A DNA stretch of 45,051 nucleotides, counting the filler, from Jimgerdemannia flammicorona (Eukaryota), in the NCBI GenBank assembly GCA_003990765.1. It is 2 parts of 2 records of this genome, joined end to end, with 100 filler letters (N's around TTAATTAATTAA, not from the genome) between each part and the next. Parts side by side here need not be neighbours in the genome. Positions count along the whole stretch, not along the records: positions 1 to 22,476 come from RBNJ01001272.1; 1 more part is not named here. One strand, written 5' to 3'. Made by a program: the position numbers and the translations under genes. Positions 885-45,051 of this stretch are shown here, one piece after another. The notes beneath the pieces are model-generated. The model had not been told where the DNA came from. It did no database searches and saw only the letters and a list, made by a program, of their open reading frames with translations. Numbering within the stretch: the first letter of the stretch is position 1; each line of letters starts with the position of its first letter.

Positions 885-937
885 ATTTAATATATCTGAT
901 AAGTGTGATATGTATCTTCATATAGTGTAGTATATAT

Positions 938-2564
938 TATCATATAGTAGTTGCTGAGTCCTTTAAATATGTCAGATTTTTTTCAAGGTGTATCTATTAG
1001 ACTAACTATAAGTTTGTTATAAGTAAGTTCTTATTGGATTATCTTCTCAAGATCTTATAGTCCTCAAACTTCTTATCTATAAACTACCTTGTTATCTCTT
1101 AGATTATTTGTATGAAATTGAGTATAAGTGAACTGAAACTAACTTTATTTCAAAAGAAATAAGAGGAGTATTTATATAAAATATAATTCAATAATTGCTA
1201 AGTTATAAAGCTAAATATAAATTCCAATAACCAAATAAAATACTGGAATACAGAAAACTACAGTTGTAAGTATAAGTTCAAGTGTCTGTACAACTGGTTA
1301 CATAAGTTCAGAATATCAGTAGAATTTTGGTGGTACAGAAAAAGAATACCAGAAGAATTTCTGAGTTATGTAAGATCAGAATGCTAAAAGAATAACAGTT
1401 ATATAAAAAAAGGATACTGGTAGAATCTAGTATTACCAAGAACTTAGAGCAGAAAGTTCAGAACTATGGAAGCTTCATCTTCATTACTATCATCAAGACC
1501 AGAAGTCAGAGACAGGATATCTTTGAAGGAGATGTAGTCTATGAACATTTTATCCATTTTATATATATTGTACATTTCATGTGCTTCATATATGTTGTGT
1601 GGAATGACATCATCATTGATGATATCATCATGAGTGATATTATCTCATTTAGTGGTGGGGAAAGCAAGGAGGTCTGGGACTCTCCAATCTATAAGGTTCT
1701 CTTCTACAAAATAAGAGACAAATGTAGGGTCTTGAAGAGGTCTAACCTGGATACTGGGGCTTTGAAATGCTGAGATCAATTCTTACAGAAATTGATCAGG
1801 ATTGTTCTTGAGGATAGGATTCCAGAACTCTCCTACCTTGTCACTATTGAGGGTAATAGTGGACTGAGCTTCTGTGGCCACTATGGCCTCTAGTATATTA
1901 GTATAGTGGGCTGACAGTTCCTTGAAGTCTGAGATCCTAGTGTACTCTAAGTTAGGGATCGACCACAGTGCATACCTAAAGATCTGATGAATCTTTTTAG
2001 CTATTCTTATTTCATATATATCCATGGAGGTAGTATCTGGTATTTCTTGGTGACCAGTCTGAGAGAATTCTCGATAGAGGAGGTTTCCTATTTCATACTT
2101 CTACTACATCTAGAGGTATTCAGTAGCAATGGTGATCCTTGTTTCCATTTTGTAGTAGTAGAGAATATAATGATAAGGGTCACCAGTATCCAGATTAAGA
2201 CTAGGAGTCCTTCTTATATAGATCCTCATGGCTCTTCTGATGTCTTGGAACATCCTTTCCTAGACTAAAGGACCTTAGTAGTTCCTGGACCTTGAGGTTT
2301 GGCAAACAGTAGGCATTTTGTTTATAGTAAGTATTTAGAACTATTCCTATGAGCTTTGTTTGAATTACTACAACTGCAGTTTCTTGATCCTTTTTTTATA
2401 TTCCTCAAGATGTCCATCTTGTGGTCACAATGACTTATGGTTGATCATCATTGCTCATCTGATAGCCTGAATAAGTCATATCATATGTATGATCTTCTTA
2501 TACTTTGATCTGATGGCTTATAAGGAAAGGCTATCTCTTGTGCTGATATCATTATTCTGAGGTC
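938..2564 (-). repeat. 3' LTR of G1 (~1.63 kb)
   Basis: Colinear with 8357-8706 plus 14552-15608, and with the reverse complement of 43529-45051. Confidence 0.9.
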
Positions 2565-2940
2565 CTCCTGAATAAGAATCTTCTCTTGAACATCTTTATT
2601 CATTAGTCCAGTCTGAAAAATTTGCTGATCCCATAACCTCTGATAGGGGGTTAAAAAGTGGTATTTATGGGCTGGTATCTTCTCTATGTATTTTGGTATG
2701 ATAGTAAAGGATCACTCTCTTCATATAGAGCAAGGGCCTGATTCTGATCTTGATCAATCAGTTGATAGTTTGAACTTCTCTGGCTTTGAAAGTCTCATAA
2801 ATGAGTAGTTGCTGGTGCTGTATCTCTTAGAGAATGGTCCAGACAGATTGTCTACTAGTTATGGGACATGCTGTTATGATTCATGAACTAGAATCTCTCA
2901 GGTGGTCATTATATTTTGCTTCTCTTATATAGATTTATAG
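1444..2940 (-). pseudogene. Extra ORF3 of G1 (env position, overlapping the LTR), unknown function
   Basis: One frame without indels from ~2940 to TAA at 1444, including track ORF 1783-2025 and ending DDSNEDEASIVLNFLL*. Stops checked inside the LTR part read CAA/CAG/TGG in the younger copy at 43.5-44.6 kb. The start is uncertain, and the 2565-2940 part has no second copy to confirm it. Confidence 0.7.
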
Positions 2941-3921
2941 TACTTCTTGAGTCTGTTCCTGTGTACTATAGTAGGCAGTATGGTCTCTGAGAGTTTTATA
3001 AGCCAAAAGGTAGTTCTCTTGATATCTTGTATATAGAAGGATTCTTTCCATTTGGGCTCCAGTTTTCATGACTATAAGGCTTCTATCATATTTTGATATA
3101 GTAGGACCTTTTCTCTGATTTGGATGAGTTTTAGAGTCTTGTGATTCTTTTTTGAATTCTTCCTTATTAGTACTTATAACTTGATGATATAATCTTCAGC
3201 CTTCTTTCTGATTTGGTATAGTCTCTAGATTTCTGAGTCAACCTATCTCCAAGTTAGGTCTAGATTTGTAGCTGAGGTTCCATCAGAATCTTCTTCTCTG
3301 AAGAGCAGTTCTCTTGGGGTAAAGTGTGTACTCTGTGATCATATATCTTATAGGACAGAGAGGGCAGTTGGGAGATAGTTATCCCAATTATCATATGTAT
3401 CTGAGATCTTTACCAGAATATTCTTAAGAGTCTTATTGGTTCTCTCTATCTGTCTATTCTCTTGAGGGTGGTATGTAGTGATCTTGATATACTGAAGCTT
3501 GTATTTCTGATATATTATCTCATAGAATCTATTGACAAATTCTGTGCTGTAGTCTGTAGTAATTTGTCTTAGTGTCTTATAGTGGCAGATGATTTCTTGA
3601 TACAGGAAGTTGGCTATAGAGAGAGCATTGACTTCTTATAATGCTCCTACTTCTATTTATTTGATAAAGAGGTCTATAATAACTATAATATAGCAGTTTC
3701 CTAATAGTATCACTGGTAGTGGTCTAATAATATCTATTGTGATATGTATAGTGGAAGGGGATAGGCTCAATTCTTAATGATCTAGATATCTGGTCTTATT
3801 GATCTTATTTCTGTTTTTAGTACTTGTCATACTCTTTGACAAATTGGTACAGGTCTTCTTCTATCTTAGGCTGCCATATAGTTCTTCTTACTTTATTATA
3901 TATATTGGTTTCTCCTAGATA

Positions 3922-4050
<129 letters not shown>

Positions 4051-5769
4051 TCCTAGGTATCCTTGTTCATGTACTTCCTTTATTACTTGATACTTCTTAT
4101 ATTCAGATATTATGAGCTTTTCTCCTTTTCTAAGTATAGTGTTATTTAGTTCAAATTGTTTCCAAGTCTGATTGATGATGATGATAGTCTATAGTTTGAG
4201 GTGATTAGGCATCTTCTGCTATCTGAGGTAGCTGATTAATTCATAGTATAGCTCTTAATTCATATTGAATAGTCTTGATGAGGGTATTTCAGAGTGTCCT
4301 TGAGAGTATATCAGCATTAGCATTGGTTCTTCCTGAGCAGTACTTGATAGTATAGTTATACTCTTACAGCCTATAGATCTATCTAGTATATATTTCTTTA
4401 GGGTTCAGAGTATAGAATAGCTAGGTGAGAGCAAAATAGTCTGTTTGAATTATGAAGTGTTTCCTGACTAGGTAGTAGTAAAACTTATCTACTACCCAAA
4501 CTACTACTAAGCATTTGAGCTTGCATGACTCATAGTTCTGTTCTGCTCTATAGATACTTTGGCTTATATAGAAGATAATATATTTATGTCTATCTTTCTT
4601 CTGAGCTAAGACTGCTCTAAGTCCTATAGCACTTATATATGTCTGCAGGATGAACTCTAGGTTCCAATCTGGTCTTCTGAGGATTGGTGCTTGGGTTAAC
4701 CTGGTCTTGAGTTCATAAAAGGTTTCTTGACATTTCTTGGTCTATTCAAATTTGGTCTCTTTCTTCAGTAGCTCATAGATAGGTACTACAATATTAGAGT
4801 ATTCTTTGATGAATCTTCTATAGTAGGAGGCCAGTCCAAGGAAGGCATGGACTTCTGTAGTTGTTCTGGATCTTAGATAGACTGCAACAGCCTCAATCTT
4901 TATGGAGTCCATGTGAATTCCAGTCTGGTTGATAAGGTGTCTTAGGTAGGTGATTTCCTAAGCTGTAAACTTACACTTCTTGGGCTTAATGTAGAGGTCA
5001 TACTCCTTGAGCTTCTTAAGAGCCAGCTATATATAGTTAATATGTTCCTGTGTGGTATTGCTGAAGATAATCACATTATAAATATAGATAAAGAGCTATT
5101 TTCTAATCTCATTGCTGAAGACTCTATTTATCATTCACTGAAAACTTGTTAGGGCATTGTACATTCCAAATAGCATTCACAAGTAGACATAGGTGATATT
5201 AGGTATAATGAAAGCTGATTTCTCACTAGTATCTTAAGTGAGACCAATCTGATAGAAGTCTGAGAACAGATCCAAGGTGGTGTAGTATTTGGCTTTGCTT
5301 TTAAGAGTAGTAAGAATTTCTTGAATATTTGACAAGAGCTACCTATCCTTCTTAGTAATTGTATTGAGCTTCCTATAATCAATACAGAGTCTTGGGGCAA
5401 ACTCTCCAGGCTTACTTCCTTTTTTTGGGATGAGGACAATAAGTGAAGCCCAGGGGCTGATAGCTTACTTAATGATTCCAGCTTCTTCCATTTCCTTGAG
5501 TTCTGCTCACAGCCATTCTCTGTAGGCAGATGATATAGGTCTGGCTTTCTGGTAGATGAGCTTGATATTACCAGTGTCAACTTCATGATCATACTTGGGT
5601 TCTTGATTGTAGATATCTCTGAAGTCTGTAGCAAGTACTCTTTCATTCTGGTATAGGATCTTGAGAAGTTGTTCTTCTAGGGGAAAGTTTTCTCTGATGA
5701 TATATGTGTGCTTGTTCTGGTCCTGGTCTTTCTTATACTCAAGTTCAGTAGTCTTGATAGTAGTATAGA

Positions 5770-6170
5770 CTTCTCTTCCAGTAGATCCAAAGTCTTGTTC
5801 TCCTCTCTTGATCTTGATGAGTTTAATGACTTCAGTGGTCTTAGGCTTCTTGACTTCATGGATCAGTATCTGGCCAATCCTGTCATACTTCTTGACTTTG
5901 AATAGAGTGGTGGGGTTGTAATTCCTAACTATAAGAAAGATCTCACCAGTATAATCAGAGTTAATTACTCCTCCTTCAACTGAGATTTTGCTTTTGGCCA
6001 GACTGCTCCTGATCTTGATAATTCCAGCATAGTTCTCTGGCAACTTGACTCCAATTTCAGTATCAAGTAGAGTAGTGGTTTGTGGTTTGAGGATAACTAG
6101 CAAGATTCATTCCTATAACTCCTTCAGTCTTGCATTCTGGGATCTTGGCTTCAGGGTAGAACTTCTTGAC
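5770..6170 (-). pseudogene. dut: Trimeric dUTPase domain within G1 pol, between protease and RT
   Basis: All five dUTPase motifs are recognisable: (A)GMNL, IKIRSSLA, GGVINSDYTGEI, DRIGQIL, RGEQDFGSTG (track ORF 5507-6103). Confidence 0.93.
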
Positions 6171-8337
6171 CTTGAGAGTGATGTTTAGTTCTTGTTTCTC
6201 CTCATTATTGCTATTAGCTTGAAGCTCTGGGGGCTGGTCATCTTCTTCAGCTTCTCTTTTTACTTCAGCAGCTTCTTGCTCATACTTTTGTTAGCAGATT
6301 TTCCTAACTTCACTAATAAAGGATCAGCAGTCATTCAGATATTCAGAGCAGTATATTCTGATACCATAGGGGTATCTTTCTTGAGAGGCCTAGCCATCAA
6401 TAATCTTGTTATACCACTGCTCATCTGTGAGCTTGGGTGTCTTGCTCTTGTTCTTGTACATTGAGTGTATGAAGATTTCTATGTCCTCTTCATCTCCTTT
6501 CTCTATATCTGGTAGTACTCCTTTGTGAATATTGATAGAGACTCATACCTTTCTTTCTCTATAATTGATTTGCATCTTCTGGATATTGAGGTCAATGACA
6601 GTCTTGGCCTTATAAAGCTATTTGTTGTCAATGAGAATATCATAGTTGGTGGTGCTTATAATAATTATATCTACTGAAATAGTAGCTCCTCCTATCTTGA
6701 TGGATACTTCTCAGATCTTACCTAGGGGGGTAGCTTATATACCATCTGCTGTGATATAGACCATCTTGATAGACTCTTCAATATCCCAGCCTAGGTAGTC
6801 AATTGCCTTCTTACTTATAAGGTATCCTCCAGTACTGGTATCAATAATGGTATCAAAGATACAATCTTCAATCTGATATGAGGTATAGACTCATATCTTG
6901 TGCTGGTCTTCAGATTTTTTTTGTACATTGTGAGCTTTTACAATCTTATACTCTTGATTTTTGGCAGTGATTGCAAGTTCTACTCTGAAGGCAGAGACTT
7001 CAGCTAGTTATCCAAAAGTAGTATTGATCTTCTATTTCTTGAGGTCCTTATAGATATCATATTGGTAGATCTTTGTCTTGTGCAACTTCTGTTCTTTCTT
7101 ACTTTCACTTTCTCCTGAGACTGAAGTAGTGCTTTCAATAATTTGACATGCAGCTTTATCTAACTCTATGTCTTGATCAATCTCCTTGAGTTGGGTCTTG
7201 CTTTGAATAGTGATAGCTGGGGTCTTCTTTGGTCTTCCAACTGGCTTACTGTTACTCTTCTTATCATAGGACTTGGATTAGGTTCTGGTATCTTTAGTAA
7301 TAGGGTAAAATTCAGACTTCTCATAGTATTCTTCATCATCAGTATTACCAATCTCCTCAATGACTACTATATTGATTTATTCTCTAGTTCTGGTAGTATT
7401 GCTTAGTTGGGCTTTGCATCTTGTTTCAGTTATATAACTCTTTGCATAGTGGCCTTCTACTCTACATCTGAAGCATATGATATTGTATTCTTCTATAGTA
7501 GTTACAAATCTCTATACTGGTCTCCTATTGGCACTTCAGACTTCTTAACAATATTACCAAGGTGTGCAGTCATCTCAGCAAACTGCTTGGTGAGTTCCTC
7601 CACTGGATCAGCTTTGGCTATCTTGGAGATAGGTGGGGATAGTTGTCTGTTTATAACTGTGGTGGGTATGATACTGGTTGGCTTTGATGACTCTATCTTG
7701 ATACTAGTTATTTTCTCTATTGAGTGTTTGGCAGAGTATCTGAAAATCTAATATCTCTGTATAAAGACCACTTTCTGATCAAGGATTAGAGCAGTTGGAG
7801 TAGACTGGGTTACTAGAGCAATTTCAGAGTAAACTTCTTTGAGAAAGGTTGAATCTGTTATTTATTTCTTAAAGGCATCATCATAGCCAGTCAAGACAAT
7901 CTGGTAGTAAATTTGAATGTAGAATGAGTTGGAATCTTCACTAAGTCTCTGGTAGATAGTATTGAGTTGATTCTTAAGAGCTTGCTTGATCTCTTCAATA
8001 TAGTATGTAGTTATGAGAAAGGTCTTCATGTTGGCAAGTTTGGCTGCACTAGTATCAGTAATGATAGCTGTATTGAACTTGTCTCTGGTAGGTTCTCTGA
8101 GGCTAACTAGTAGAAGAGCCAATTATGCATCTATGCCAAGAGCTCATATGGCAGCAAATTGTTCAAAGTTTTCAATGAAGGTCAGGATTGACTCTTTAGT
8201 AGTATATCTATAGAATGTTGGGGGATATATTTCTATCTTATCTTGAATTCTTGCAGGGGTGACTCTTGTAGTCAAAGTAGTTGTTATGGTGGTTGTTTGT
8301 TTTTCAGCTTAAAAGTGAGGAATTCATCTTGAATTAC

Positions 8338-8353
8338 CAGTTAATGGATACCA
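8338..8353 (-). promoter_or_regulatory. Putative primer-binding site of G1
   Basis: The minus strand reads LTR end ...TGACA, then ACT, then TGGTATCCATTAACTG. TGG 3 nt after the LTR is the usual PBS geometry. The cognate tRNA was not identified. Confidence 0.7.
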
Positions 8354-8787
8354 AGTTGTCATGTAGTAGTTGCTAAGTCCTTCAAATATATCAGATTCTC
8401 TTCAAGATGTATCTCTTAGACTAACTATAAGTTTGTTATAAGTAAGTTCTTATTGGAATATCTTCTTAAGATCTTATAGTTCTCAAACTTCTTATCTTTA
8501 AACTGTCTTATTATCTCTTAGATTACTTGTATGGAATTGAGTATAAGTAAACTTGAACTGACTTTATTTCAAAGGAAATCAGAGAGGTATTTATACAAAA
8601 TATAATTCAATAGTTGCTAAGTTATAAAGCTAAATATAAATTCCAATAACCAAATAAAATACTAGAACATAGAAAACTATAGTTGTAAGTACAAGTTCAA
8701 GTATCTCATCTCTCTTCAGTACTACTCAGGTTATACAACCTTTGAAAAGCAACTACAACATTGTTTTTGGAGAAAAGAGACTAGCAA

Positions 8788-10816: not shown

Positions 10817-10847
10817 GGAAGGACTTGATAACATAACATTCTTCACT

Positions 10848-14500: not shown

Positions 14501-16728
14501 CCAAGTAACAATAAAAAAAAAAAAAAAAAAAAAAAAAAAGTTCAAGTATCTGTACAAATTGTTATATAAGTTCAGGATGTTAGTAGAATTTTAATAGTAT
14601 AGAAAAAGGATACCAGAAGAATTTCTGAGTTATGTAAGATCAGAATATCAGAAGAATAACAGTTATATAGAAAAAAGATACTAGTGTTACTAAGAACTTA
14701 GAGCAGAAAGTTCAAAATCATAGGGGCTCTTCAATCTATGAGGTTCTCTTCTATAAAATAAGAGACAAATGTGGGATCTTGAAGAGATCTAATCTGGATA
14801 CTGGGGCCTTGGAATACTGAGATCAATTTTTGTAGAAATTTATCAGGATTGTCCTCAAGGATAGAGTTCCAGAACTCTCCTATCTCATCACTATTGAGGG
14901 TGATAGTGAACTGGGCTTCTGTGGTCACTATGACCTCTAGTGTATTGGTATGGCAGGCTGACAGTTCCTTAAAGTCTGAGATTCTAGTGTACTCCAAGTT
15001 GGAGATTGACTATAATATATGCCTGAAGATCTGATGAATCTTCTTAGCTATTCTTATTTCATATACATCTATGGAAGTGGCATCTTATATTTCTTGATAA
15101 CTGGTCTGAGGAAATTTCTGATAGAGAAAGTTTTCTATTTCATACTCCTGCTATATCCAGAGGTATTTAGTAGTAATGGTGATCCTTATTTCTATTTTAC
15201 AGTAGTAGAGAATATAATAATAAGGATCATCAGTACCTAGGTTAAGGCTAGGAGTCCTTCTTGTGCAGGTCCTCATGACTCTTCTGATGTCTTGGAATAT
15301 CCTTTTCTGGACTAAGAGGTCTTAGTGGTTTCTAGACCTTGAGATTTGGTAAGCAGCAGGCATTTTGTTTATAGTAAGTCTTTAGAACTATTTCTGTGAG
15401 CTTTGTTTGAATTGCTACTACTGTGGTTTCTTGATCCTTTTTTTATATTTCTTAAGATATTCATCTTATAGTCACAATGACTCATGGTTGGTCATTATTG
15501 CTCATCTGGTAGCCCAGATAAGTTATACTATATGATCTTCTTATATTCTAATCTGGTGACTTGTAAGAAAAGGCTGTCTCTTGTGCTGATGTCATCATTC
15601 TGAGATCACTATTATAATATATATTAGAGGGATATCTTTGTTATTATCCACTTTTGCTAGTAGGGTTTATAATCTTTTATTATAGAATACTTAAGAAAGA
15701 GTAGAGAGAAGATAGTAATTATTTATTGATACTAGCTTATGTACTTATATATATATATATTAATAATATTTATAGTAATGATACATATAGTCAGACTATA
15801 TCACTATATATTGAGTTACTATAACTAAGATATTTTAATACTTAAGTAAATATTACTACTTAATCTTATCATTTGTATATATTAATACTATTGTATAAAA
15901 TGTTTATTTTATTTTTTACTTTAAATTTCAAAATACTACAATTATAGTATAATAGAAAAAATAAAATATTTACTCTTCTGATAAATATTTAATAAATTAT
16001 TACAGTAATAGAGAGATATAAAAGATGTTTTATTAATTAGAATACTAAATATTTTCAGTATACATAGTTCAGTATTCAACTATTATTTTAATAATATAAC
16101 TGTATTATGTTGTTGAAATAAGAAGTGGGCCAAGTATAGAATATGGGTTCCAAATACTAACATTTCACTAGAAATTAGTGTATCATAAGACAACCTGTCA
16201 AACCTGAAAAGTGAGCGCCGGATGTAGGTAGATGAAGTGACCGCTGGATGCAGGTAGATGTCCATCAGATGCGGATGCTCACTAGATGCAAATGTCAGAT
16301 GTCCTTAATGTAGATATCAGATAGCCCCAGATGTCCCGGATGCAAAAAAATTCGTGATGCTAGTAGAGCTCGAGAATGCTACCTGCTTTCATCTCTCTGG
16401 AGAATGACTGCCTGCGGTGACCTAGAAGATTTCTAGGTGCCATCTAGAAGTTGTAGAGTCCATTTCTAGACGTTTCGTAGACGACGTCTTTGGTTGTAGA
16501 GTAATGTACTTAGGTGTCGCTTTGAGGAGCTGTGAAATTGTAGTTGTAGAGAAAAATGCCCGACTCGGAAGCGACCGGAACGAAATGAGAGAAAAGAGCG
16601 AGGGCATCGAATACGAAAAAGTCCTCCATGTTGTTTGTCGACTAGTCCCTGTACTTCGCCACCATCCGTCTCAGAGGTAGCTGCATCACAAATCCTGGTA
16701 CCGTACGTTGGATACCTGCGCCATCATT

Positions 16729-16820: not shown

Positions 16821-17065
16821 CTAATATGCTCAAATAGGACAAATTCCGATGCTGAGGGGTGAGATAGATTAAAAAAGGGAGAGAGGTTCTCAGAGTGAAT
16901 GGTCATTAGATCATGTATGCAGATAACCTTAATATACATGTGCCCCTTGCGAAATACACTTTCGGCTGAGCATCGATTCGGAATAAAAAGCGAATCTCTC
17001 ATTTACCACAATTCATACTGCACACACCGTACACATTTCTGACTCACTTTATTGATTCAAGAAAA

Positions 17066-21363: not shown

Positions 21364-21370
21364 TATAAAA
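21364..21370 (+). promoter_or_regulatory. Putative TATA box of the ABC gene
   Basis: TATAAAA about 70 nt upstream of the ACC-ATG at 21434. Confidence 0.55.
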
Positions 21371-21433
21371 GCACCACCTCCTTGCCATTCTTACCAGCAA
21401 CACAGAAGTGTGTCATCCCTCCCGCAATCCACC

Positions 21434-23830: not shown

Positions 23831-23833
23831 ATT

Positions 23834-24820
23834 ACTAGTTCTCTTATCTCTTTACTTTGAACTGTTTTAATCTGAGGTTTATTTTCTCTAGATATTAGAG
23901 ATATTTATATAAGTTTGCTAGCTATATAGCAGCTAAGTTAGAACTTCTTTTCTTGTGAGTTATTTTATATAGTTGAGAAATCTATATATTTATATAATTT
24001 ATATATCTATATAATTGTAAGTTTTATATAATTATACTTTTTATACAATTATACAAATTATATAACTGTAAACTTGAGTAATTACTAACTATAATACTAT
24101 ACTATATTGAGAATCAGATTTAGATACTATGATCAAATATATATCTTCTGATTATATTTTCTAATTTAGATCAACTATTATAACTTTCTTCTAAATAAGT
24201 AATTTCATCTCTAAATTATCTTATGTAAACTCCTAAGTTTTCACTAGTTATATATTCTTATATATTATAATATATGTAGTAGATGTCTAACTATAGAAGT
24301 ATAGTAGATTTCTATATCTTGAAACTTGATCTTATTCTGACTCTCTCAGAGTCTTTGGGTATAGAAATGTAAGTTCAAAGTATATCTATTTATAGGCTTA
24401 CTAGTTCTCTTACTTTTTCTTTGCTTTGAACTATTTTAATCTGAGATTTATTTACTTTAAATACTGGGGATATTTATATAAGTTTGCTAGCTATAAGATA
24501 GCTAAGTTATGACTATATTTCCTATAAGTCATTTTTCACAAGTATGGATTCTTAATTTGTAAAATTTCAATAATTATCAAAATTCAACATTTGTTAAATC
24601 TCAATATTTGTGAAATAACTATTATTTATATAGCTATACTATATTTGAGAATTAGTTTAGATACTATGATCAAATATCTATTTCTCTGATTTATATTTCT
24701 AATTTAGAATAACTATCACAACTTTCTTCTAAATAGGTATTTTATCTCTGAAGTATTTTATTTACTTGAACTCTCAAGCTTCTATAAGTTATGTATATCT
24801 CTTTATACTATATAATTTAT
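23834..24820. repeat. Diverged direct duplication (~23834-24270 and ~24400-24820), probable 3' LTR region of element G2
   Basis: Both copies begin ACTAGTTCTCTTA…CTTTGAACT.TTTTAATCTGAG and share GATACTATGATCAAATAT…CTAATTTAGA. They lie 3' of G2 pol. Confidence 0.7.
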
Positions 24821-27800
24821 GTCATTATATTCTCTAAATAATATTTTTTAATATATCTAAAGTCTCTTATAACTACTTCTCAGAAATAAGCTAAGACTGG
24901 CTTATTATCTTTAAATAACTTATATACTCTTTTAATAATAGTGATATAGATATAAGAGAGCTAATACTCTAATTTAGTCTTCTTTTCTCATTTCTGATTA
25001 CAAATTTAGTAGCTATCCCAACTTGAAGTATTCTTAAAACTTGTTTCAGTTCTAATAGACCTTGAAGTGTAAGATTTATTATAAGTATATCTGTATTATA
25101 TTTTGAATACTATTGAAGAATTTCTCTATTGTGGGTGGCTCAGTAGTATACCATCATCTTTCTATAGCTTATTAGATAGTACTAGTAATTTTGAGAGCTA
25201 TAATAGTACTTTGTTGAAGAGCTATGATACTTCTTGAGTTAGTTTTGATGAATGGTAGTAGGGATAATTATACTTAAGAGTTTTTATAGTCAAAAGATAG
25301 TTCCTTTTATATCTTGTACAAAGTAAGATCCTTCTTACTTAGACTTCAATTTTTGTGACCATAAGACTTCTACTATGTTCTAATATACTAAAACTTTGTC
25401 TACTATCTTAATAATCTCTAGAGGTTTATAAATATTTTCTACATTATTCTACTATAGAGCTTATACTTTGATTATATAATTCTCAGCCTTCTTCCTGATT
25501 TGATATAATCTCTATATCTCTATATTTATATATTTCTATATAGTATCTCCATTTGATAATAGAATTTCTTAAGAACTTTCTTCTCTAAACAATATATTTC
25601 TCATAGAGTAAAATAGGTGCTTTGTAATTAAATATCATAATATATTGGTAGATAGTGGTCCTAATTTTTGTAGTTATTATAGATCTTAGTGATAATATTC
25701 TTAAGAGTCTTATTGATCCTTTTTGCTTATCTATTTTCTTGAGGATAATAAGCTATAGTCCAAATGTACTAAATCTTATATTTCTTATAGAAAACCTCAA
25801 AGAACTAGTTTATAAATCCTGTTCCTCTGTCTATTATTACTTATACTAGGGTCTTGAATTAGCAAATAATTTCTTTGTAAAAAAAATCAGCAATTGACTA
25901 AGTATTAGCTTCCTTGAGTAATTCTGCTTCTATCTATTTTATAAAAAGGTCTATAATAATAATGATATATTAGCTGCTATTCAAAGTCAAGAGTAGAGAG
26001 CTAATTACATCTATTGCAATATGAGCAAATAGTATTAGTTCTATATATACTGATTCTTGGATCTGATTTTGCTAATCTTGTTTCTATTTCTGATATTTAT
26101 CATAGGTCTTAACAAATTGTCTAATATCTTTCTTTATTTCTGGTCACTATATTGTTCTTCTTACTTTATTATAGATATTTCTTTCTTTTAGATAGCTAAG
26201 TTTATATACTGTCTTCATTATTTGTTTCTTTTTATACTTATACTCAGATATAACTAGTAGTTTTTCTTTCTTTAGAGTTTCTTTATTAGTTTTGAATTGT
26301 TTTTATATTCTACTAATAATCATTTGTATCCATTCTTTCAGATATTGGAGCATCTTTTACTATCTTAGATAGGTGATAATTCTATAGTAGAGCTCCTTAT
26401 TCATAGTTGGTTTACTGGTTGGAAGTTTTTCAGAATATGTATCTATAAGAGAGTATCTATATTGATATTAGTTTTTTCTAAATAGTATATAATAGTTATA
26501 TCATATATCTGTAACTTCATAATCTATCTGATATAGATTCCTTTGGGTTGTCCAGTAGTTAGTAGTTAAGTAAGGGCTGAGTAGTTTGTCTAAATGATAA
26601 AGTATCTTTCAGTAAGATAATAATATAACTTTTCTATAACTCAGATAACTGCAAGATATTCCAACTTATAGAATTTATATTCTTTTTCAGCTTCTTGGAT
26701 TCCTTGACTAATATATATAATAATATATTCTACTTTATCTTTTCTCTAAGCTAGAACTACTCCTAATCTGACTATACTTATATCTATCTATAAGATGAAT
26801 TTTTGAGTTCAATCAGGTCTCCTCAGGATGGATACCTGAGTCAGCCTGATCTTGAGTTTGTTGAATACTTTCTATTATCTATCAGTCTACTGAAACTTGA
26901 TATTCTTCTTATTGAGTTCATAGATTGGACCTATAATATTGGAAAATTCTCTAATAAATTTGTAATAGTATGAGCCTAGTCTCATAAAGACTTTGCCTTC
27001 AGTAATAATAGTGGGTCTTGGATATGCTACTACTGCTTATATCTTGAGAGAATCTGTGTATATTCTATCTCAGTTGATGATGTAGCTAAGATAAGAGATC
27101 TTAATTTCTATAAATTTGCACTTCTTAGACTTGATATATAGGCTATACTTCCTTAGCTTCTCTATTATCTACTAAATATACTATATATACTCTTCTGGTA
27201 TCTTACTGTAGATGATCACATTATCTATATAAACTACTATCTATCTTCTTATATCATAGCAGAAGATTTTACTAGACTTGCTAGAGTATTATATATTCTG
27301 AATAATATTTATAGATAGATATACATAGGTTTTATCTGGGATAATAAAGGCTGATTTCTTACTTGCTATTTCTATGAGATCAATTTTGTAGAATTCTGAG
27401 TATAGATCTAAGATACTGTAATACTGTACTTCTCTTTTAAGATTATAAGAATATCACTAATAAGAGATAGTAATTAGTAATTCTTTTTGGTAACTAGATT
27501 GAGTTTTCTATAGTCAGTATAGAGTCTTGGAGTAAATTCTCCTGACTTACTTCCTTTCTTTAGAGCTAGCACTACTGGTGAAGTTCAGGGATTGCTGACT
27601 TTTTTAATAATACTAGTTTCTTCTATCTATTTAATTTCTTCTCTGAGCCATTCTCAATAGACAGATGGAATTGTTCTTACTTTTTGATAAATTGGATCAG
27701 TATCTTCTATATATATATCATAGTAGTAGTGTAGGGTCTTTCTTTTAATATTCTTGAAATCTGTAACTAGAATATCCTCAAATTTATAAAATATCTTCTT

Positions 27801-29580
27801 GAGTTCCTTCTTGAGTAAGAATTATTTCTGATGATATAATTATACTTATTCATAGTTTTCTCCTTCTTGTAGTCTAGCTTAGTAATCTTAGTACTGATGA
27901 AAACTCCTCTTTCTATAGATCAGAATTCTTTCTTTTCTCTGTTCATTTTCTTCAACTTTTTGACTTCTATAATTTTTGGCTGTAGAACTGGGAAGATCAA
28001 CATCTATACTAATTAGTTTTTCTTTTTGATTAGAAATAGAATTGTAGGATTGTAGTTCTTAGCAATAAGTAATATTTCTCTAATATAATCTAAATCAATA
28101 ACTTCTTCTTTAATGGTGATTTTACTTCCAGCCAGACTATTTCTTGTCTTGAGAATTCTAATATAGTCCTTCAGAATAGTCATTTCTAGACCAGTTGTAA
28201 GTAAGATAGTTGTCTGGAGCTTGAGTATAGTTTCCTCTACTGTGGTGATATCTATTCATACTGTATTTTCAGACTTATATTCTGATAGTACTATATCAAA
28301 ATAGATTTTCTGAATCTTGATCTTAATCTCTTCTCCATTATCACTATCTTCTAAGAGAGCTAATGGTTTATTATCCTCTTTTTCATTCTTTTCTTCTTTC
28401 TCCTCTCTAACTTATTTCTCTAGAGCCTTCTGTCTTCTTTAATAATATATTTCCTTAATTCTATTAGTATACTAGTAGTAATTATTTATATACTCTATAT
28501 AGTGATCTTATAGAGACAGACAACTTCTTATGATATATATTCTTCTATAATCTTCTTGCACCAGTTCTCTTTACTGATCCATCTGACTTTCTCTTCTTGC
28601 TTACTATCTCTTTTCTCTATCTCAGGAAGTACTTCTTTATTAATATTAATTAAGATCTGTATCTTCTATCCTCAATATATAATCTACATTTTCTGAGCAT
28701 TTATATAAATTATAACCTTAGTCTTATAGAGCCACTGGTTACCAATGAGAATATCATAGTTGATACTATTGATTATAATTATATTTATTGAGATAGTTAC
28801 TTCTCCAAACTTGATAAAGACATCTTGAATTTTTCCAAAAGTGTAGCTCTTGTGCTATCTGTTGTAATAAATATTAACTTAATTACTTCTTCAACTTTCC
28901 AACCTAAGCAGTCTACTGCTTTTTTACTAAAAAGACATCCTTCTGCTCTTATATTAATGATGACTTCAAAAACTCTATCTTTGATTTAACATATTATAAA
29001 GGCAGATATTTTATAATTATCTTCACTCTCTTCTCTAGAATCTTCTTAAATATTGTTATCCTCAATTATCTTTCAATCTTGGTCTTTGGCTATTTTAGCA
29101 AGTCTAAATCTTATTTGTTATCTAAATGTAGGAATTTCTGCTAGTTGTTCAAAGGTTATATTAATATTTTATTAGCTGAAGTTTTTGAAGATATCATACT
29201 TAAAGATCTTGCTTTTGCAAAGCTTCTTTTCCTTTTTTTCTTTGCTAGCTGAGACTAGAGTAGTTTCTCAGATAATATCTTAAACTATCTACTCAAGCTC
29301 TATATTTTGATCTATTTCTCCAACTTGACTTTCCATAGTAATCTCTATTTATCTTATTACTGAGTTCTTCTTGGGTCTTTCTGGTGGTCTTTTATAGAGC
29401 TCTTTATAAATATTCTTCTTAGTAGTTTGGATAGAATAGATCTTCTACTTCTTTTCATCTGATTTTCTAATCTTTTCAAAAGTAATAATATTGACTTGTT
29501 CCTTATTTTAGATAGTATTGCTTAGCTGGGCCTTATGCTTGGTCTCACTTATATATTTATATAAGTAGTAGTAGTGACCT
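24820..29580 (-). mobile_element. Second, divergent dUTPase-bearing Ty3/Gypsy (G2), 5'-truncated at the gag Zn knuckle
   Basis: Zn-knuckle tail GHY…SETKHKAQLS (G1: TETRCKAQLS); protease IINIRAEGCLFSKKAVDCLGW; dUTPase ~27910-28290 (LKTRNSLA, EEVIDLDYIREI); RT VYIDNVIIYS; RNase H; integrase YPQENRQAKRIN. Confidence 0.88.
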
Positions 29581-32500
29581 TTTCTCTAGTAACATTCAGA
29601 TTACACAAACTTCTGACAATACTCACAATATCATTTTTGGAGAATAGATATTAAAAATATAGTGACCAATAAGTATTCCAAGATATATGCTGGGCAGAGT
29701 GGCCCTAGTATATTCAACTGGTAGCATATAGGGAGGAGTTATGGCTTAGGGAGAAGTATGCAGAACTTGCTAGCTAGAGGATGTAAAAGAGAAGGAGGCA
29801 GTACTGAGAGGCAGGAGACTGAGAGAATGGCTTTGCTAATAAGATCAAGAGGGGACATCTATTAATTGAATTGGAAGATTGGCTGAGAAAGAGCAAGGAG
29901 ACAGTGAGGGCTGTGGGGTCTGATAGAGTAGCCTATAGCAGTGAGAGCAGTGAGGCTGAGAGAGTAGTGGCTGAGGAGAGTGGGACTGCTGATGGCAAGG
30001 AGACTACCAATCTGGAAAAAAATACAGATGTGATAGTTAATAGTAGATCTGGACAGAGAGTGGGCACAAGGCCTGGAGATCTGGTAGATAGTATAATAGG
30101 TCTAATGGTAGTACTATTACTTAAGAAATCAAGGTTAGAATTTACTATCACATTGTGTTTCCAAGACTTAGTAGTTATAGTAAGGATGATTCTGGGGCTT
30201 TTGGTCTAAAAGGTGAAAGGAGCAGTCTTGGTGAAATTTTTGAAAGATTTGGAAGAAGTAGAGGTGGACTTTGAGATAGAGGATATACTGCTAAGAGCAA
30301 TAGAGAAGAGAGTGGTAGTAGGGGAGTGGTGATCCCCATGGCTAGGTGCTTGTACTGGAACCCCCAAGTAGTATAGTTGACAGTAGTGGATGTGCCTATA
30401 GTGTCAAAGGAGATGGCCAGGGGGTTGATTATAGAGGCTGTCAAGGAGTATATGGATATCATAGATATTAGATTTCAGGTCTAGGAGGGTATAGAGTTCA
30501 GGATAGAGAACATAGATATCAGAGTGTGACTAGTAGATAAAGAGAATATGGGGAAAGCAAGGGACTGACCAGCAGTTCTCAAATGGGGACCTGTAGATTA
30601 TAAGGTTTTAAGAGTGAAAGAGATATCAGAGGAAGAAGAGAACTTGCTAGAGATATTGAAGGATCTGACTGGGGCTGTTGAGAGGAGGAGATTGGTCTAA
30701 AAAGAGTTTGAGACCAAGACAGTAGTAGAGATTGTGAATGTTAAGAAGGTGTGATTGAATTGAGTGGTCTAAGAGAGAGTATAGGGAGGTATATTTAGAA
30801 GAATCTGTTGGCAAAGTTGAGAGAGGGGGTAGAGGAGGGGACTGTTGCTGTAGATGTTGAGTTGAGGACAAGTGCCTAGGTAAGAGAGAAGGGAGTGACA
30901 TCAGTAGAGACCCTAGGGGAGAACAGAGGCTCAACACAGAGTGCAGTAGTGGAAGATGAGATGATGGACAAGGAGGAGTACCTACAGTATGGGGTATTAG
31001 TAGGGGCTGAAGGGGATGACAAACTACAGGATATGCTAGAGGAGGATTGGGATAAGTCAGCAAGAATAAATAGAGAGAGAGGACAGGTGGAAGGGGAGAA
31101 AGGGGTGGCTCAGGGAGTAGAGAAGGCAGTTGATAAGAAGAAGTAGCTGTGGAAAATACTGGTAAATGTGACAGCTGAGGAGCTGAGGGGAGAGGACTTT
31201 CAGATACTTAGTGAGAGGTACTGAAGAGAAATTCTACAAGATGAGGAGGTGCTATGGAAACTCTGAGATAAGATAATGATAGCTTTGCTGAAAGCTGAGA
31301 CATATTAAGTAGATGATGAAAGAGAGACAGTACTTCAGACAATTGCAAATGACTAGACTACTTATTTATGGAGTTCAAAAAAGGGACTGACAAAGTGGCA
31401 GATAGTATATAAGAAGTATCAGACAGATATGGAAGCTATAGATGGTGTGAGTTATTAGGAGATCTTGGAGATATTAGAGATTCAGCAGAGAGAGGCAGAT
31501 AAGCTTGAGATAGAAAGAAATCTAGATATTGCTAGTGATACAGTGAGTATGAAATTGTAGAGTAGGCAGCTGTTCTTTGAAAAACATTATTCAATATGAA
31601 CAGTACAACTAGAATCTTCTCTTTAAATATCAATGGACTATAAGAAGTGATGAGGTATAGAAATATCTTCTGCTAGCTAGAGAGACTAGATGTAGATTTG
31701 TTTCTACTATAGGATATTGGATGTGATAGAGACTTAGATATTCTGGACTGGATGAAAAAATGGGGTAGAGTAGATATTTAGTATAGATGTATGGATATTC
31801 TGGTTTGCAAGAGTAAGGGGGATATTGGGGATATTGGACATTGGGGGAGCAGAGTAGTGTGGGGAGTTTGGAAGAGGCCAGGCTGGAGGCTCTTGACTAT
31901 TGGATCATATTATTATCCAGCAGAAAGAGGGGAGAGAGTGGAATAGATTCAGAGACTATGAGAGTCTGGAGCATTGATAGAGGTGGAGATTGACTGTCTA
32001 GGTAAGGACTTTAATATGATATATAATGGGAAGTTAGACAGAACTGATGGGGGAAGGGGGATGACTGGTAAGAGTAGTAGTATAGAAGCCTAAGAGGAAG
32101 TTGAATGTCTGAGTTCATTAGTGAATGCTGGGAGACTTGGATGGGGGGATCATAGGGTCTATACTCACTAAGTGGTAGGGTTGAGCCCAAGGATTGACTG
32201 GATATTAACTGCTGAATACTAGAGAGTTAATATCTAGAGAACTTTGGAAACTATTTAGTGCCCATGGTCAGATCACTGGGGCCTTCTAGAAAGGAGGTGT
32301 TTTGGAGGAAGTAGGGAGGGGCCTGAATATTAGCATCTAAATACCTTATTGCTAGGAGAGACCTTCTTATAGAATACATGAGTAATAGACATTTGCTCCA
32401 GAATACTTAGCCAGAGAGTAGAGGGGCTAGTGATTGGGGATTACTGAAGGAGATTGAAATCAGATGTACAACAGTACTGAGGAGAGGCAGAAAGGATGCA

Positions 32501-39361: not shown

Positions 39362-39982
39362 TAACTAACTAACTTATATCATTAATGTATAGTCTTGATC
39401 TTATATCTTAAATTCTGTAGTAAGAGAAATTCTTCATCTCAAACCTTGAGCAATTATTACTCTAGTTATCTTATTTCTTAGAATTATTTCTGTCTCTTGA
39501 AGGCAGTATATTTCTCTATAAAACTTCTTTTTACTTCAAACTCAAACTGACTTATATTTTGAGTTTTGTATAGTCTGTAGTCTTGTATTCAATTTCATAG
39601 TAGTAGTAAGAGTAATTCTTTAACTTAAATCTTAAGTAATTATTGCTTTAATTATCTTGTTTCTTAGAATTATTTCTATCTCTTAGAGATAGTGTATTTC
39701 TCTATAAAACTTCTTTTTACCTTAAACTTGAACTAACTTGTATCTTGAGTTTCTTGGTGAATTTTGATTTCCAAGGTGACATTAACTAACTAACTTATAT
39801 CTTGAATTTTATATGGTCTATGGTCTTTTATCCAATTTTGTAGTAGTGATAAGAGTAATTCTTCAACTCAAATCTTAAGTAATTGTTACTCTAGTTATCT
39901 TATTTCTTAGAATTATTTTCATCTCTTAGAGATAGTGTATTTTTCTGAAAAACTTCTTTTTACTTTAAACTCAAACTGACTG
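39362..39982 (-). repeat. Three diverged ~150-240-bp repeats in a decayed coding-like region
   Basis: A shared core CTTAGAATTATTT…ATTT.TCT..AAAACTTCTTTTTAC.T.AAACT at ~39478, ~39663 and ~39906. The minus strand reads FE.KRSF.EKYT…EIR.LE. Confidence 0.75.
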
Positions 39983-40191
39983 AGATTTATTCACTACAGA
40001 TCAGAGGATATTTATATAGTTTTCAGGCTATGTATAAGGTTAGATAATTGGTTTTAACTCACAATTACTATAAAATACTAATTAGAATAATTTTGAAATT
40101 TAGGTAACTAACTAACTGGATTAGGCTAATTTTATATTTGTAATAATTTTGACTAGTTAATATATAGTCACTATTTATTCAACTAACTAAC

Positions 40192-41345
40192 TTACTCAAT
40201 TTGGCTAATAGAGCCATCCTCATGTATCTTAAAATTCAATATAACTAGAATTATATCATTCTTATTCTCTTCCTTATTTTCTTCAGGAAGTCCAGCTAAA
40301 TCATTTTCTATATCTTCCAGAAAGTTGTTGAAGTTATCTTCTAACAAAATTAGTAAGTTATCACTATTCTCTAAGTTATTATTGATAATATATATTACTA
40401 AGGAGTATAAGATCATTCTATTCTTAATATCTCTAGTTAATAGTAAGGTCATCCACAAAATAGAAAACATTTGTTAAATTCTGAGAGAAGTAGACTCTTA
40501 AGGAGGGGGGCCTTGAAATAGTACAATTAGACCATAGATGAACTGATCTGAATTATCCTCTAGAATAGAGTTCTAAAGGTCTTAAACCTCATCACTCTTG
40601 ACCTATAATGATAGATTGAGTTTCTTCTGTAATCATTTCTTCAAGATAATCTATATGATAGTTTATTAGTTCTTAAATATTAGAGACTTTAATATATTCC
40701 AGATTAGGAATGGTCTAGAGTATATATCTGAAGATCTAATGAACTCTTTTAACTAATTTCTATTTATGTCTATTTATGTATATAATGTCTGTAATTTCTT
40801 AGGAGTTGACTTGTGAGAATTCTTAGTAGAGTGATATCTCTTCTTATATTTTTACTATATCTAGAAGTACTTAGTAGTAGTGATTCTTATCTTCATTTCT
40901 CAGTAGTTAAGAGTATAGTAACAGGGGTCTCTTATATAGAGATTCAGACTAGGGGTCTTTCTTGTATATAATCTCATTACTCTTTTGATATCAGTAAATA
41001 TCAGTTCTTGAACTGATGGATCTGAGTAACTCCTTAACCTTACTATTTAGCAGATAGTAGGTATTTTGTTTTATAGAAAGTCTCTTATTTATAGTTGATG
41101 TTTTTTACTTCTTCTCTTAATACTTCTTTTATATCTTGAGGGTCTTTTTCTTTAATCCATAAGATAGGGTCACCTGACTTATAGTAATATACTATTAGAC
41201 TTATTATGAGTCATTATGAGTTCAGATAGGAATTATCTTCTAATTAAGATAAGTTATAGTTGAGTCATATCTTGCAACTAGTGGCTTACAAAGTTAAGAC
41301 AGTCTTCTAAATTCTGATATCACTGGTTTTGAAGATATCATTACA
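40192..41345 (-). mobile_element. Old, diverged copy of the ORF-bearing LTR (related subfamily)
   Basis: The minus strand encodes KRVH*IFRYIL*TIPNLEYIKVSNI and an acidic tail ending VILNFK. The terminus …CATTACA at 41345 keeps the TG start. The left boundary is unclear. Confidence 0.75.
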
Positions 41346-43530
41346 CTATATAAAAATGAAAATAGTTGAGTTTATGAACTATCAAATAAATATATAAATA
41401 GAATATGAATGAAACTCACTATAGTATAAATTGAACTATTGCTGTCTTTGGTCTTTAAGCTCATGTTCTTCAAAATTTAACAATAATATCTGTTTTTAGA
41501 TTACTATTATACTTTGAGAAAAGGTCTTTAAGAAAAAGATATTAAAGAAGTATATATATCTACTGTAAGCTTCTAGATCACTTTATTAAACTTATATTTT
41601 TAGCAGAGATTACTGATACCTATGAATCTACCAAATTATAATATGAAAATTCAATTTATATTCATAAACAGGCTATAATATACAAACTATAATTCATAAA
41701 CTTATTATCAAAAACAACTTACCTGTTTCTTTTTCTATCTCACTTAACTATCTGTTCTATATATTTGACCAAATGAGCCTCTACATCATTGTTCTGAAGT
41801 ACTTTATTATCTGGAAGTATCTCATCATTATCTGAAAGCATTTTACTATATGAAAACACCTCATCATTCTGAATTATAAGCTTGGATTATTTATTATTCT
41901 CTTCTCTACCTCTGCTTTATTTACTCTCATTCTATTCATCTTGATCTTATACAGTCTTTTGCTATTTGGCTGCTCTCTTTTCTGGGTATAATGTGGTCTG
42001 CTTTTAGTATTATATATATTTATGGTCTGGTACAGCCTGTCTATAGTCTGCTTCTTAATTTTATACATCTTTGTAGTCTTCTCCTTAGTTTTATATATCT
42101 TTATAGTTTGGTACAGCCTGTCTATAGTCTGCTGCTCCTTGGTTTTACAGAACTGACATAATTTGTTCATAGCTTGGTATATATTATTTATAGCTTAGTA
42201 CTTATTATTTATACTAGAATATATTTTATTTATCTTAAGATATGATCTGTTGTCTTTAGATATGAAAAGATTGTAGTAGGGGAGAGGATAAGAAAAGATA
42301 TAATTCTTCTAAGTGAAGACCTCTTTTTATACTTATAATATTCATAATGAATATATATATATTAACAGATATCAGAAAGTCTAATAAGTGAGAGCTTACT
42401 TATATTAAGTTAATATAATTATATAATGAGTTTAATTAATATAATAATATATATAAATATAAGTATATTAAGTAAGTATATTAAGTAAGTATAAGTATAT
42501 TAAGTAGGTAAAGAGCATTAAGCAAGTACAAGCACATTAAGCAAGTATAAATACATTATATAAGTACAAAAGTATAAAGCCAATCAGATAAAGAATTCTA
42601 TTTTAGACTAGTATGTTTTGTAATTATGAACTTACTAATAAACTTATAGTTAAAATTCATGAACTCAAAATATTATATATATTTCAAATTCTTCTTTACT
42701 TTTCAAATCTAATATAAATATAAAGCTTTCTTACTCATACTGTAACCTAAAGTATAAATTTACCTCAGGATTGACTTAACATATTTGTAAGATGTATGAT
42801 ATACTTACATAATATTAGAATGATTAGTTTATTCTTGAATTTCCAGTTCATTAAGATTTTAGTAACTTTAATATTACACTATCATTATCTATAAATTTAT
42901 CTATAGTTCATAAGTTAATCTTGAATTTCACATATATTTCAAGTTCAAGCAATCTATGTAAATGAACTTAGAAGATTTCAAATAATTATACTAAGTATAT
43001 ATATATAATTCAAATTAAGAGGAAAGATAATTGTTTAGGAAGAATAACAATTCAATTTAAGATCAAAGAAGTCCATCTACTATATTAGAGTTTGATGAGA
43101 ATTATATTATTTATAAACCAACTGGTAGTCAGATTATTAATAGTAAGAAAGTACTTATATAGCATAATGAATTTATTTTTAAACTCAAATAAGTACCTAT
43201 AACTGATATAAATAATCCTTTATATTCTTGAAAGAATGATAGGGAAATTTGGTTCATAAATCTATTATTTTGAAGTGAAAATATATCCTGAAAGATTGTA
43301 AATAAATGTTTTAATATATTTGCAGATAGAAGAATTTCAATAGTAAATAGGCCTCTTTAGTACACAAACTCAAGAGAGATGATAAAACTTTTAGATATAA
43401 TAGCTAAAAACAGAGTAATACATAATTAAACAGTTAATGTTTCTGTTAAATAAATGAACATTCAGTAATTCTCTTTTTCAAATTAGCTCTTTAATTGTAA
43501 AGTTTTTAATATTACTTATTATAATAGTGA

Positions 43531-44614
43531 CCCCAGAATGATGACATCAGCACAGGAGACAGCCTTTCCTTACAAGTCACCAGATCAGAGTACAAGAAGA
43601 TCATACGGCATATGAGATGAGCAATGATGACCAACTGTGAGTCATTGTGACCACAGCACAAGCATCCTGAAGAATATAAAAGAAGGATCAAGGAACTGCA
43701 GTAGCAGCAACCAACAAGAACCACCAATCCCAAAATAGCTCAAAGACTTACCATAAACAAAATGCCTGCTGCCTGCCAAACCTCAAGGTCAAGGAATCAT
43801 CAAGGTATCTCGGTCAAGGAAAGGATGTTCCAAGACATCAGAAGAGCCATGAGGACCCACTCAAGAAGGACTCCTAGCATCAACCTGGGTACTGCAGACC
43901 CTTATCACTTTATCCTCTACTGCCATGAAATGGAAACAAGGATCACCATTGCCACCGAATGCCTCCAAATGTGGCAGGAGTACGAAATAGGAAACCTCCT
44001 CTGCCAGGAGTTCCCATAGGCCAGCCCTCAAGAGCTACAAGATGCTACTCCCATGGACCTACATGAGGCAAGGACAGCAAAGAAGATCCATCAGATCTTC
44101 AGACATGCACCATGGTCAATCCCCAACTTGGAGTATGTTAGAGTCTCAGACTTCAGAGACCTGTCATCCCACCGCATCAATACACTAGAAGCCAGGGTAG
44201 CCACAGAAGCCCAGTCCACCATCACCCTCAACAGTGAAGAAGTAGAAGACTTCTGGCACCCTATCCTTCAGGACAACCCAGACCAATTCCTGCAAGGATT
44301 GATCTCAGTATTCCAAGGCCCAAGCATCCAGGTTAGATCCCCCCAAGACCCCACATTTGTCCCCTATTTTGTAGAAGAGAACCTCATAGACTGGAGAGCC
44401 CCAGACCTTGTTCCCAACATCCCCGCCACAGCCAAATGTGATGACATCATCGATGACATCATCCCGCGCGACATACCTGAAGCACGCGAACTGTGCGATG
44501 AGGCATATGAAGTATGCGAAACATGTGACCTATGATGAATTCGCAGACCTCATCTCCTTCAGTGATAATGATGATGATGACGAAGCTCCCATGATCCTGA
44601 ACTTTCTGCTCTAA
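43531..44614 (+). pseudogene. Best-preserved copy of the LTR-encoded part of ORF3
   Basis: Track ORFs 43762-44019 and 44053-44535 are the same frame, separated by one TAG. The frame extends back to the LTR start with three more stops. One frameshift near 44530 precedes the tail DDDDEAPMILNFLL*. Confidence 0.75.
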
Positions 44615-44625
44615 GTTCTTTGTTA

Positions 44626-44752
44626 CACTGGATAATGCCAGCACTGGTATTCTCATGTAACACTGGATAATGCCAGCACTGGTATTCTGAGGTGACACGA
44701 AATTGTTCCAGCACTGGTATTTTGATATGGTACTAAATAATGCCAGCCCTGG
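44626..44752. repeat. Short tandem repeats in the LTR, downstream of ORF3
   Basis: ACACTGGATAATGCCAGCACTGGTATTCT twice (35-nt period), plus partial CCAGCACTGGTATT and ATAATGCCAGC copies. The core CCAGCACTGG is a near-palindrome. Confidence 0.8.
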
Positions 44753-45051
44753 AACTTAGTAGTTTTAGTTATTGGAATTTATATTTAGCTTTATATCTTA
44801 GCAACCATTGAATTATATTTTGTATAAATATCTCTCTGATTTCCTCTGAAATAAAGCCAGTTCCTCTCAGTGCAATACACATACTTCCTTGCAAGCAATC
44901 TAAGAGATAACAAGACAGTTAAATATAAGAAGTTTGAGGACTATAAGACCTTGGGAAGGCACTCCAATAAGAACTTGCTTATAATAACTTGAGTTAGTCT
45001 AAGAGATACACCTTGAAGAGAATCTGGCATATTTGAAGAACTCAGCGACCA

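Follow-up and report, generated by a model that had tools for sequence, protein, structure and literature searches.

A conserved sense-strand reading frame, and candidate accessory gene, inside the long terminal repeats of a dUTPase-bearing Ty3/Gypsy lineage of Jimgerdemannia flammicorona

Accessory genes reaching into the long terminal repeat (LTR) are treated as a hallmark of the complex retroviruses, and accounts of LTR retrotransposons usually mention gag-pol alone, with extra open reading frames (ORFs) now and then in the internal region. Among the retroviral cases, sag of MMTV is a superantigen ORF in the U3 of the LTR, and nef of HIV/SIV as well as bel2/bet of the foamy viruses are 3' genes overlapping U3. 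For fungal Gypsy elements, the passages on brtn of Botrytis Boty/BcGypsy1 (Zhao et al. 2011) in PMC7264820 and PMC8365987 place this ORF in antisense orientation between pol and the 3' LTR. The additional ORFs of plant elements (Athila env-like, Grande, RIRE2, Retand) are situated in the internal region, between gag-pol and the LTR, in the part of PMC7264820 that treats them, and dUTPase-bearing fungal Gypsy elements are on record as well (PMC2864245). In our literature search, no description of a sense-strand ORF within a fungal LTR came up; a supplementary figure of Botrytis extra ORFs in PMC8365987 could show a similar case.

The DNA analysed here, referred to as the window, is a stretch of 45,051 nucleotides (filler included) from the genome of Jimgerdemannia flammicorona (assembly GCA_003990765.1), in which two parts of two records are joined by 100 filler letters and positions 1 to 22,476 come from RBNJ01001272.1. 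Our explanation for it, held with somewhat more confidence than doubt as a whole, is a sense-strand accessory gene of ~270-340 codons in the 1.6 kb LTR of a dUTPase-bearing Ty3/Gypsy lineage. Like MMTV sag, it would be a sense ORF of ~300 codons in an unusually long U3, upstream of the TATA box of the LTR; unlike sag, it shows no sequence relation to that gene (Pfam, E<=1) and no membrane anchor, belongs to a Gypsy element in a host of fungal type and not to a retrovirus, and has a putative TATA box of its own. With nef and bel2/bet it shares the character of a 3' accessory gene that reaches into the LTR and has a soluble, non-structural product, whereas the retroviral genes begin ahead of the LTR and depend on spliced or internal-promoter mRNAs, and the Gypsy ORF lies wholly within the LTR. 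Homology to sag, nef or bet was detected neither by Pfam (11 members of the ORF family) nor by a profile search of PDB sequences nor by Foldseek with a low-confidence model. The ORF resembles brtn in being an extra ORF of unknown function in a fungal Gypsy element, but its sense orientation and its position inside the LTR set it apart from brtn as the latter is described in the relevant passages (PMC7264820, PMC8365987), and an antisense ORF of the brtn type was rejected on the same two grounds. The plant additional ORFs, in the account given of them in PMC7264820, are likewise lineage-specific, conserved and of unknown function, but belong to the internal region and not to the LTR. What is possibly new here is the combination of an LTR-borne accessory gene in a Gypsy retrotransposon, an orphan protein and, perhaps, a promoter of its own.

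The window combines, in mosaic fashion, decayed AT-rich repeats with two gene islands of normal GC content. A repeat of 1.6 kb (937-2564) recurs at 8356-8706 plus 14538-15607 and, inverted, at 43517-45051 (blastn self-comparison). The first copy (copy A) and the second, divided one (copy B) are direct LTRs, 84-90% identical by blastn, which bracket a coding interior; read on the minus strand, this comprises a D(T/S)G motif (6848), dUTPase (5974), reverse transcriptase (RT; 5086), RNase H (4741-4421) and a piece of integrase (3635-3348), in the PR-RT-RNaseH-IN order expected of Ty3/Gypsy (Metaviridae). Since an interior of the form PR-dUTPase-RT-RNaseH-IN lies between copies A and B, the repeat is the LTR of a minus-strand Ty3/Gypsy element, here element 1. 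Pfam recognises its RVT_1 (5.9e-19), RT_RNaseH_2 (4.3e-25) and, between protease and RT, dUTPase domains (PF00692, 5507-6106, minus strand, E 3.1e-21 and 9.8e-20 in two scans); the integrase remnant yields only rve_3 at E 0.0062, under the Pfam cut-off, and stops and frame changes occur in all the internal domains. A PBS-like TGG stands 3-4 nt past the 5' LTR and a purine-rich tract (2565-2590) directly upstream of the 3' LTR; a clean target-site duplication was sought at the outer flanks and none was found. The integrase region also holds a long A-run (3817-4048, poly-Lys on the minus strand), which probably reflects the expansion of a microsatellite within a dead copy.

Other components of the window are noted for completeness. 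Element 2 is a second dUTPase-type Gypsy element (Table 1), whose segment 27821-28228 (minus strand) aligns with the dUTPase region of element 1 at 47% amino acid identity (tblastx), and LTR remnants of the type of copy D adjoin it. Fragments of a third, distant Gypsy-like pol lie in the opposite orientation at 33924-36703 (plus strand), with 30-37% amino acid identity (tblastx). The LTR of copy B is interrupted by a 5.8 kb LINE-like insertion at 8707-14537 (plus strand; RVT_1 E 1.5e-25, 3' A-run), nested in the 5' LTR of element 1, 14 nt of which are duplicated at the junctions, and relatives of this LINE-like element are found at 29583-33689 (plus), 22900-23860 (minus) and 33217-33720 (minus). 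The sense strand of the nested LINE-like element is rich in G (35%) and poor in C (13%), and between copies, A<->G differences on the sense strand outnumber C<->T differences 2-4 fold (114 v 55, 63 v 29, 62 v 22, 92 v 25); this purine hypermutation is strand-asymmetric, whereas the Gypsy LTRs are changed on both strands. Tandem repeat arrays occupy 34439-35266, 39360-39988 and 23832-24822, in the last of which the 3' part of a D-type LTR is present twice. The GC-normal islands contain two host-like ORFs, one for an RBR-type E3 ligase (16970-18502, plus strand, IBR domain E 7.1e-13) and one at 21341-22528 (plus strand), which looks ABC-F-like by eye, has no Pfam match and runs into the N run.

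Table 1. Positions of the retroelement features along the window
Feature	Position	Strand	Remarks
Element 1, internal region	2565..8355	-	gag zinc knuckle, protease, dUTPase, RT, RNase H, integrase
LTR copy A (3' LTR of element 1)	937..2564	-	1628 nt; boundaries +/- about 20 nt; blastn and three-copy alignment
LTR ORF, copy A	1444..2316	-	ATG 2316 -> stop 1444-1446; 290 codons + stop in a single frame; 7 in-frame stops; pseudogene
TATA-1 (TATAAA), copy A	2395..2400	-	84 nt upstream of ATG
TATAAATA box and AATAAA, copy A	1144..1176	-	1176->1171; 1149->1144; putative promoter/polyadenylation module
LTR copy B, 5' part (5' LTR of element 1)	14538..15607	-	ORF 15363->14722, 5 stops in 214 codons
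LTR copy B, 3' part	8356..8706	-	TATA box 8595->8590, AATAAA 8568->8563, then PBS-like TGG
LTR copy C	43517..45051	+	least decayed; truncated by the window end
ORF, copy C	43762->44409	+	ATG 43762; one TAG 44017-44019; frameshift between 44409 and 44528
Last 28 codons of ORF, copy C	44528-44611	+	other frame; stop 44612-44614
TATA-1, copy C	43675-43680	+	motif coordinates
Downstream TATA box and AATAAA, copy C	44823-44828; 44850-44855	+	motif coordinates
LTR copy D (second subfamily, L001-like)	about 39925..41134	-	blastn of L001 3-1311 to 41134->39925, 62.6%
ORF remnant, copy D	41064->40198	-	heavily decayed: 34-41% amino acid identity, two frames; ATG now ATA (tblastn)
Element 2, internal region (second dUTPase-type Gypsy)	25199..29594	-	~65% nucleotide identity to element 1
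Two tandem remnants, 3' part of D-type LTR	23847..24856	-	blastn of D 1008-1449 to 24856->24412 and 24275->23847

The existence of four LTR copies with a homologous sense ORF, which an earlier note on this DNA had claimed, was borne out by blastn and tblastn, and the same single sense ORF emerged from a sense alignment of three copies, from three-frame translations and from tblastn with an intact relative. The clearest match is that of residues 1-271 of the metagenomic protein P0003 to copy A (2316->1447, 62% identity, E 7e-108, tblastn). A conserved ATG stands ~250 nt into the LTR and the ORF ends ~500 nt before the LTR does, so that it lies wholly inside the repeat; the two thirds of the LTR and the ~500 codons that the note had assigned to it shrink to 873 of 1628 bases (54%) and about 290 codons. 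All four copies in the window are pseudogenes, inactivated by RIP-like C>T and G>A changes, to which one frameshift, one deletion and the loss of one start codon are added; in copy B, a gap of ~200 nt after 14722 has removed most of the C-terminal part.

As originally envisaged, the gene was larger, an ORF3 of 500 codons starting near 3051 at the integrase end, overlapping pol and continuing into the LTR. The frame of copy A can indeed be traced upstream without an indel, which is trivially so for any frame, but between 2937 and 2317 it contains 15 stops in 207 codons: six in the non-LTR part, in accordance with the approximately six counted before, and nine in the first 83 codons of the LTR, where the frame had been said to be open. 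In copy C, three stops occur in the LTR codons preceding the ATG, and in L001, a relative with an intact ORF, the frame is closed by a TAA 20 codons upstream of the ATG, which means that the ORF is not continuous with the integrase. The frame is thus closed upstream in every copy as well as in L001. Relatives did not exceed 342 amino acids in a profile search without length limits, the full-length ones all start at the homologous Met, and both the start codon and its context AAACAAAATGCC are conserved, the latter across both subfamilies of the LTR. We therefore give next to no credence to an ORF3 of 500 codons. The notion of an accessory gene in the LTR persists, as the ORF is in sense orientation, conserved, constrained and distinct from env; its extension from the end of pol has to be abandoned, and the role of transactivator or anti-silencing factor proposed for it is speculative.

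Relatives of the ORF were sought with copy C as the query of a word-indexed search, its single TAG being replaced by X, which returned six relatives among 143 candidates; a profile search in which all of 1.84 billion cluster representatives were read placed five clusters in the ORF family, and a broader profile search added one further relative. The full-length relatives comprise 271, 323, 325 and 342 amino acids, come from unrelated metagenome contigs and share an MP..R start at the homologous position. At the DNA level, a metagenome scan gave one locus, L001 (1345 nt), which is intact with 343 open codons and whose longest ORF on the minus strand is 88 amino acids. All 17 listed cluster members are metagenomic (ENA or JGI/IMG assemblies), their contigs measuring 0.5-4.8 kb (4848 nt for P0010, 2375 nt for P0012), and a reference-database accession was found for none of these 17; the LTR setting of the family is known from this window alone, the other members residing on short metagenome contigs. 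A scan of viral contigs produced 332 pattern matches, of which none was confirmed.

Comparison with characterised proteins was similarly unproductive. In Pfam, 11 members gave no credible family at E<=1; two hits, ATG5_HBR (E 0.088, two of the 11 members) and NpmA (E 0.026, one of the 11), were taken as chance. No PDB sequence matched the family profile at E<=10, and the ESM Atlas offered no lead, its best hit (0.91) being to an unnamed cluster and its recognition falling below threshold. Derivation from gag by duplication was rejected at an hhalign probability of 0.1% against the element's 86-amino-acid gag piece, the only piece compared. By these searches the protein is an orphan, with no detectable relative outside its own small family.

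The substitution pattern between the copies argues that this orphan is under constraint. In the frame of the ORF, pN/pS is 0.315 between L001 and copy C, 0.405 between L001 and copy A, and 0.251 between copies A and C, as against 1.11 and 1.41, 0.94 and 1.16, and 0.90 and 0.91, respectively, in the shifted frames; between the two subfamilies, DNA similarity extends over only about the first 650 nt of the ORF. Nei-Gojobori estimates of dN/dS are 0.14 (L001-C) and 0.17 (A-C), rough values since dS is saturated (pS 0.68-0.77). Copies A and B, which diverged after the insertion of element 1, show a frame effect too (0.40 in frame vs 0.64 and 0.80), and from this it follows that transition bias explains part of the frame-specific signal. 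Transversions were also counted on their own, as the earlier note had advised, because RIP makes only transitions: the in-frame ratio is then 0.34-0.54 and the lowest of the three frames in all five comparisons, though the signal is moderate and the distance between frames reduced, one shifted frame giving 0.61-0.98.

Decay of the copies has a recognisable signature. Of the 13 stops in copies A, B and C, 12 fall on codons that read CAA, CAG or TGG in another copy, so these stops read as single-step transitions of the RIP type. Among private changes, 61 of 88 in copy A and 65 of 78 in copy B are C>T or G>A, with CpA and CpC contexts favoured, which is a RIP-like spectrum. Copies A and B have the stops at codons 15 and 72 in common; the element may have moved with the ORF already broken, in which case the gene would not be needed in cis, or the shared stops may have arisen by parallel RIP.

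These two common stops are also among the observations that would suit a mere passenger, i.e. a captured fragment of a host gene or a fortuitously open frame without a role for the element, as would the circumstance that neither a function nor a fold could be assigned from Pfam, PDB, ESM Atlas and Foldseek searches. A passenger is, however, difficult to reconcile with frame-specific constraint between lineages that share 30-60% of their amino acids, with the conservation of both start and stop, with the lack of any cellular homologue among the 1.84 billion representatives, and with an open length that shuffling never reached (343 codons in L001 vs a maximum of 193 in 2000 shuffles), and we judge it quite improbable. 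The ORF in the LTR is, on the evidence of these alignments, very probably a real gene, conserved across several diverged lineages and kept by purifying selection.

The encoded proteins are acidic overall (pI 4.5-4.9) and polar in their layout: the first 45 residues are basic in three of four members (pI 11.2-12.0; the exception, P0010, has pI 7.8), and the last 70 residues are acidic in all four (pI 4.05-4.25). The largest Kyte-Doolittle mean over 19 residues is 0.47-0.74 in four members, in agreement with the earlier statement that a transmembrane segment and a signal peptide are missing, and identity with env was rejected for want of a signal peptide or membrane anchor. Two AlphaFold models, of low confidence (mean pLDDT 40.5 and 45.5), are both helical over residues ~20-190, so that the proposed helical core, together with the acidic tail seen in the pI values, holds up; a usable fold match was not obtained, Foldseek with a low-confidence model against the PDB giving no match at E<=0.001 and a best E of 1.0, which we treat as meaningless. 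In sum, the product is a soluble and not a membrane protein, for the most part helical or disordered, basic at its N-terminus and acidic over its C-terminal third.

How such a gene could be expressed is suggested by motifs that recur in the LTRs and that, together with the start context, are conserved more than any other non-coding feature across both subfamilies. A GAATATAAAA box (TATA-1) is present 65-84 nt before the ATG in copies A, B, C and in L001 and is degraded in copy D. Past the stop, at a distance of 180-270 nt, there follows a TATAAATA box and, ~20 nt further on, AATAAA or GAAATAAAG, this module being invariant in all five aligned LTRs. Of TATAAA, L001 contains exactly two on either strand, the first (4-9) 65 nt ahead of the ATG and the second at 1218-1223, whereas its single AATAAA occupies 1244-1249; the sense strand of copy C repeats this pattern of two and one. 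The invariant TATAAATA with the only AATAAA of the LTR ~20 nt later would constitute the promoter/polyadenylation module of the genomic RNA. Some retroviruses are known to have a polyadenylation signal shortly ahead of the start site, where it serves at the 3' end alone. Given that AATAAA comes just after the TATA box and thus probably just before the start site, the U3/R boundary would fall just past AATAAA and the ORF, which lies upstream of this conserved module, within U3; promoter, U3/R boundary and polyadenylation site are in this sense inferred from motifs.

TATA-1 could alternatively be the genomic promoter itself, so that the ORF would belong to a very long R/U5, open the full-length RNA as its first cistron and recur at the other RNA end. 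Its position ~165 nt into the LTR corresponds to a typical U3 length, and the ORF comes next with a good start context; the genomic RNA would, however, then meet the AATAAA of the 5' LTR ~1.2 kb downstream and be cut prematurely, and the invariant TATAAATA ~20 nt before AATAAA fits better with a signal upstream of the start site of the retroviral kind mentioned above. We regard so long an R region as improbable. To a similarly low degree we expect a spliced subgenomic mRNA made from the 3' LTR only, in the manner of nef or sag, with the 5' leader joined to an acceptor just upstream of the ATG and TATA-1 being incidental. The U3 position would match the retroviral cases, and TATA-1 is weak evidence to the contrary insofar as at least two TATAAA motifs arise in 15 of 200 shuffles of L001, but nothing else speaks in favour of splicing, and against it stand the in-frame stop of L001, the absence of AG from the last 22 nt before its ATG, and the conserved position of TATAAA before the ATG in A, B, C and L001.

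In the remaining arrangement, TATA-1, 65-84 nt before the ATG, would drive a short monocistronic mRNA that ends at the AATAAA of the LTR, and every LTR, be it 5', 3' or solo, would thus amount to a complete cassette of promoter, ORF and terminator. From the order of these motifs, we consider such an own-promoter cassette plausible and its chances about even. What its product does is a matter of speculation: it might act in trans in the nucleus on the expression of the element or on host silencing, the basic end perhaps serving nucleic-acid binding or import and the acidic end activation or recruitment. A nuclear regulator of LTR transcription or silencing is suggested by the charge layout of the protein and by analogy, and remains speculative.

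The widest reading of these data is that fungi harbour 'complex' retrotransposons whose LTR holds a complete gene in U3, each LTR, including the solo ones that recombination leaves behind, supplying a trans-acting nuclear regulator that activates the LTR promoter or blunts silencing; we rate this as a tentative idea that is rather unlikely to hold in full. If the LTR-borne gene is true, retrotransposon LTRs can carry coding cargo, solo LTRs gain a possible protein-coding afterlife, and an unannotated orphan protein family is added to those known; if the cassette and the regulator were true as well, a new protein family would come together with a new mode of accessory coding for an LTR element. 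In practical terms, it is advisable to look for ORFs in long fungal LTRs before masking these as non-coding.
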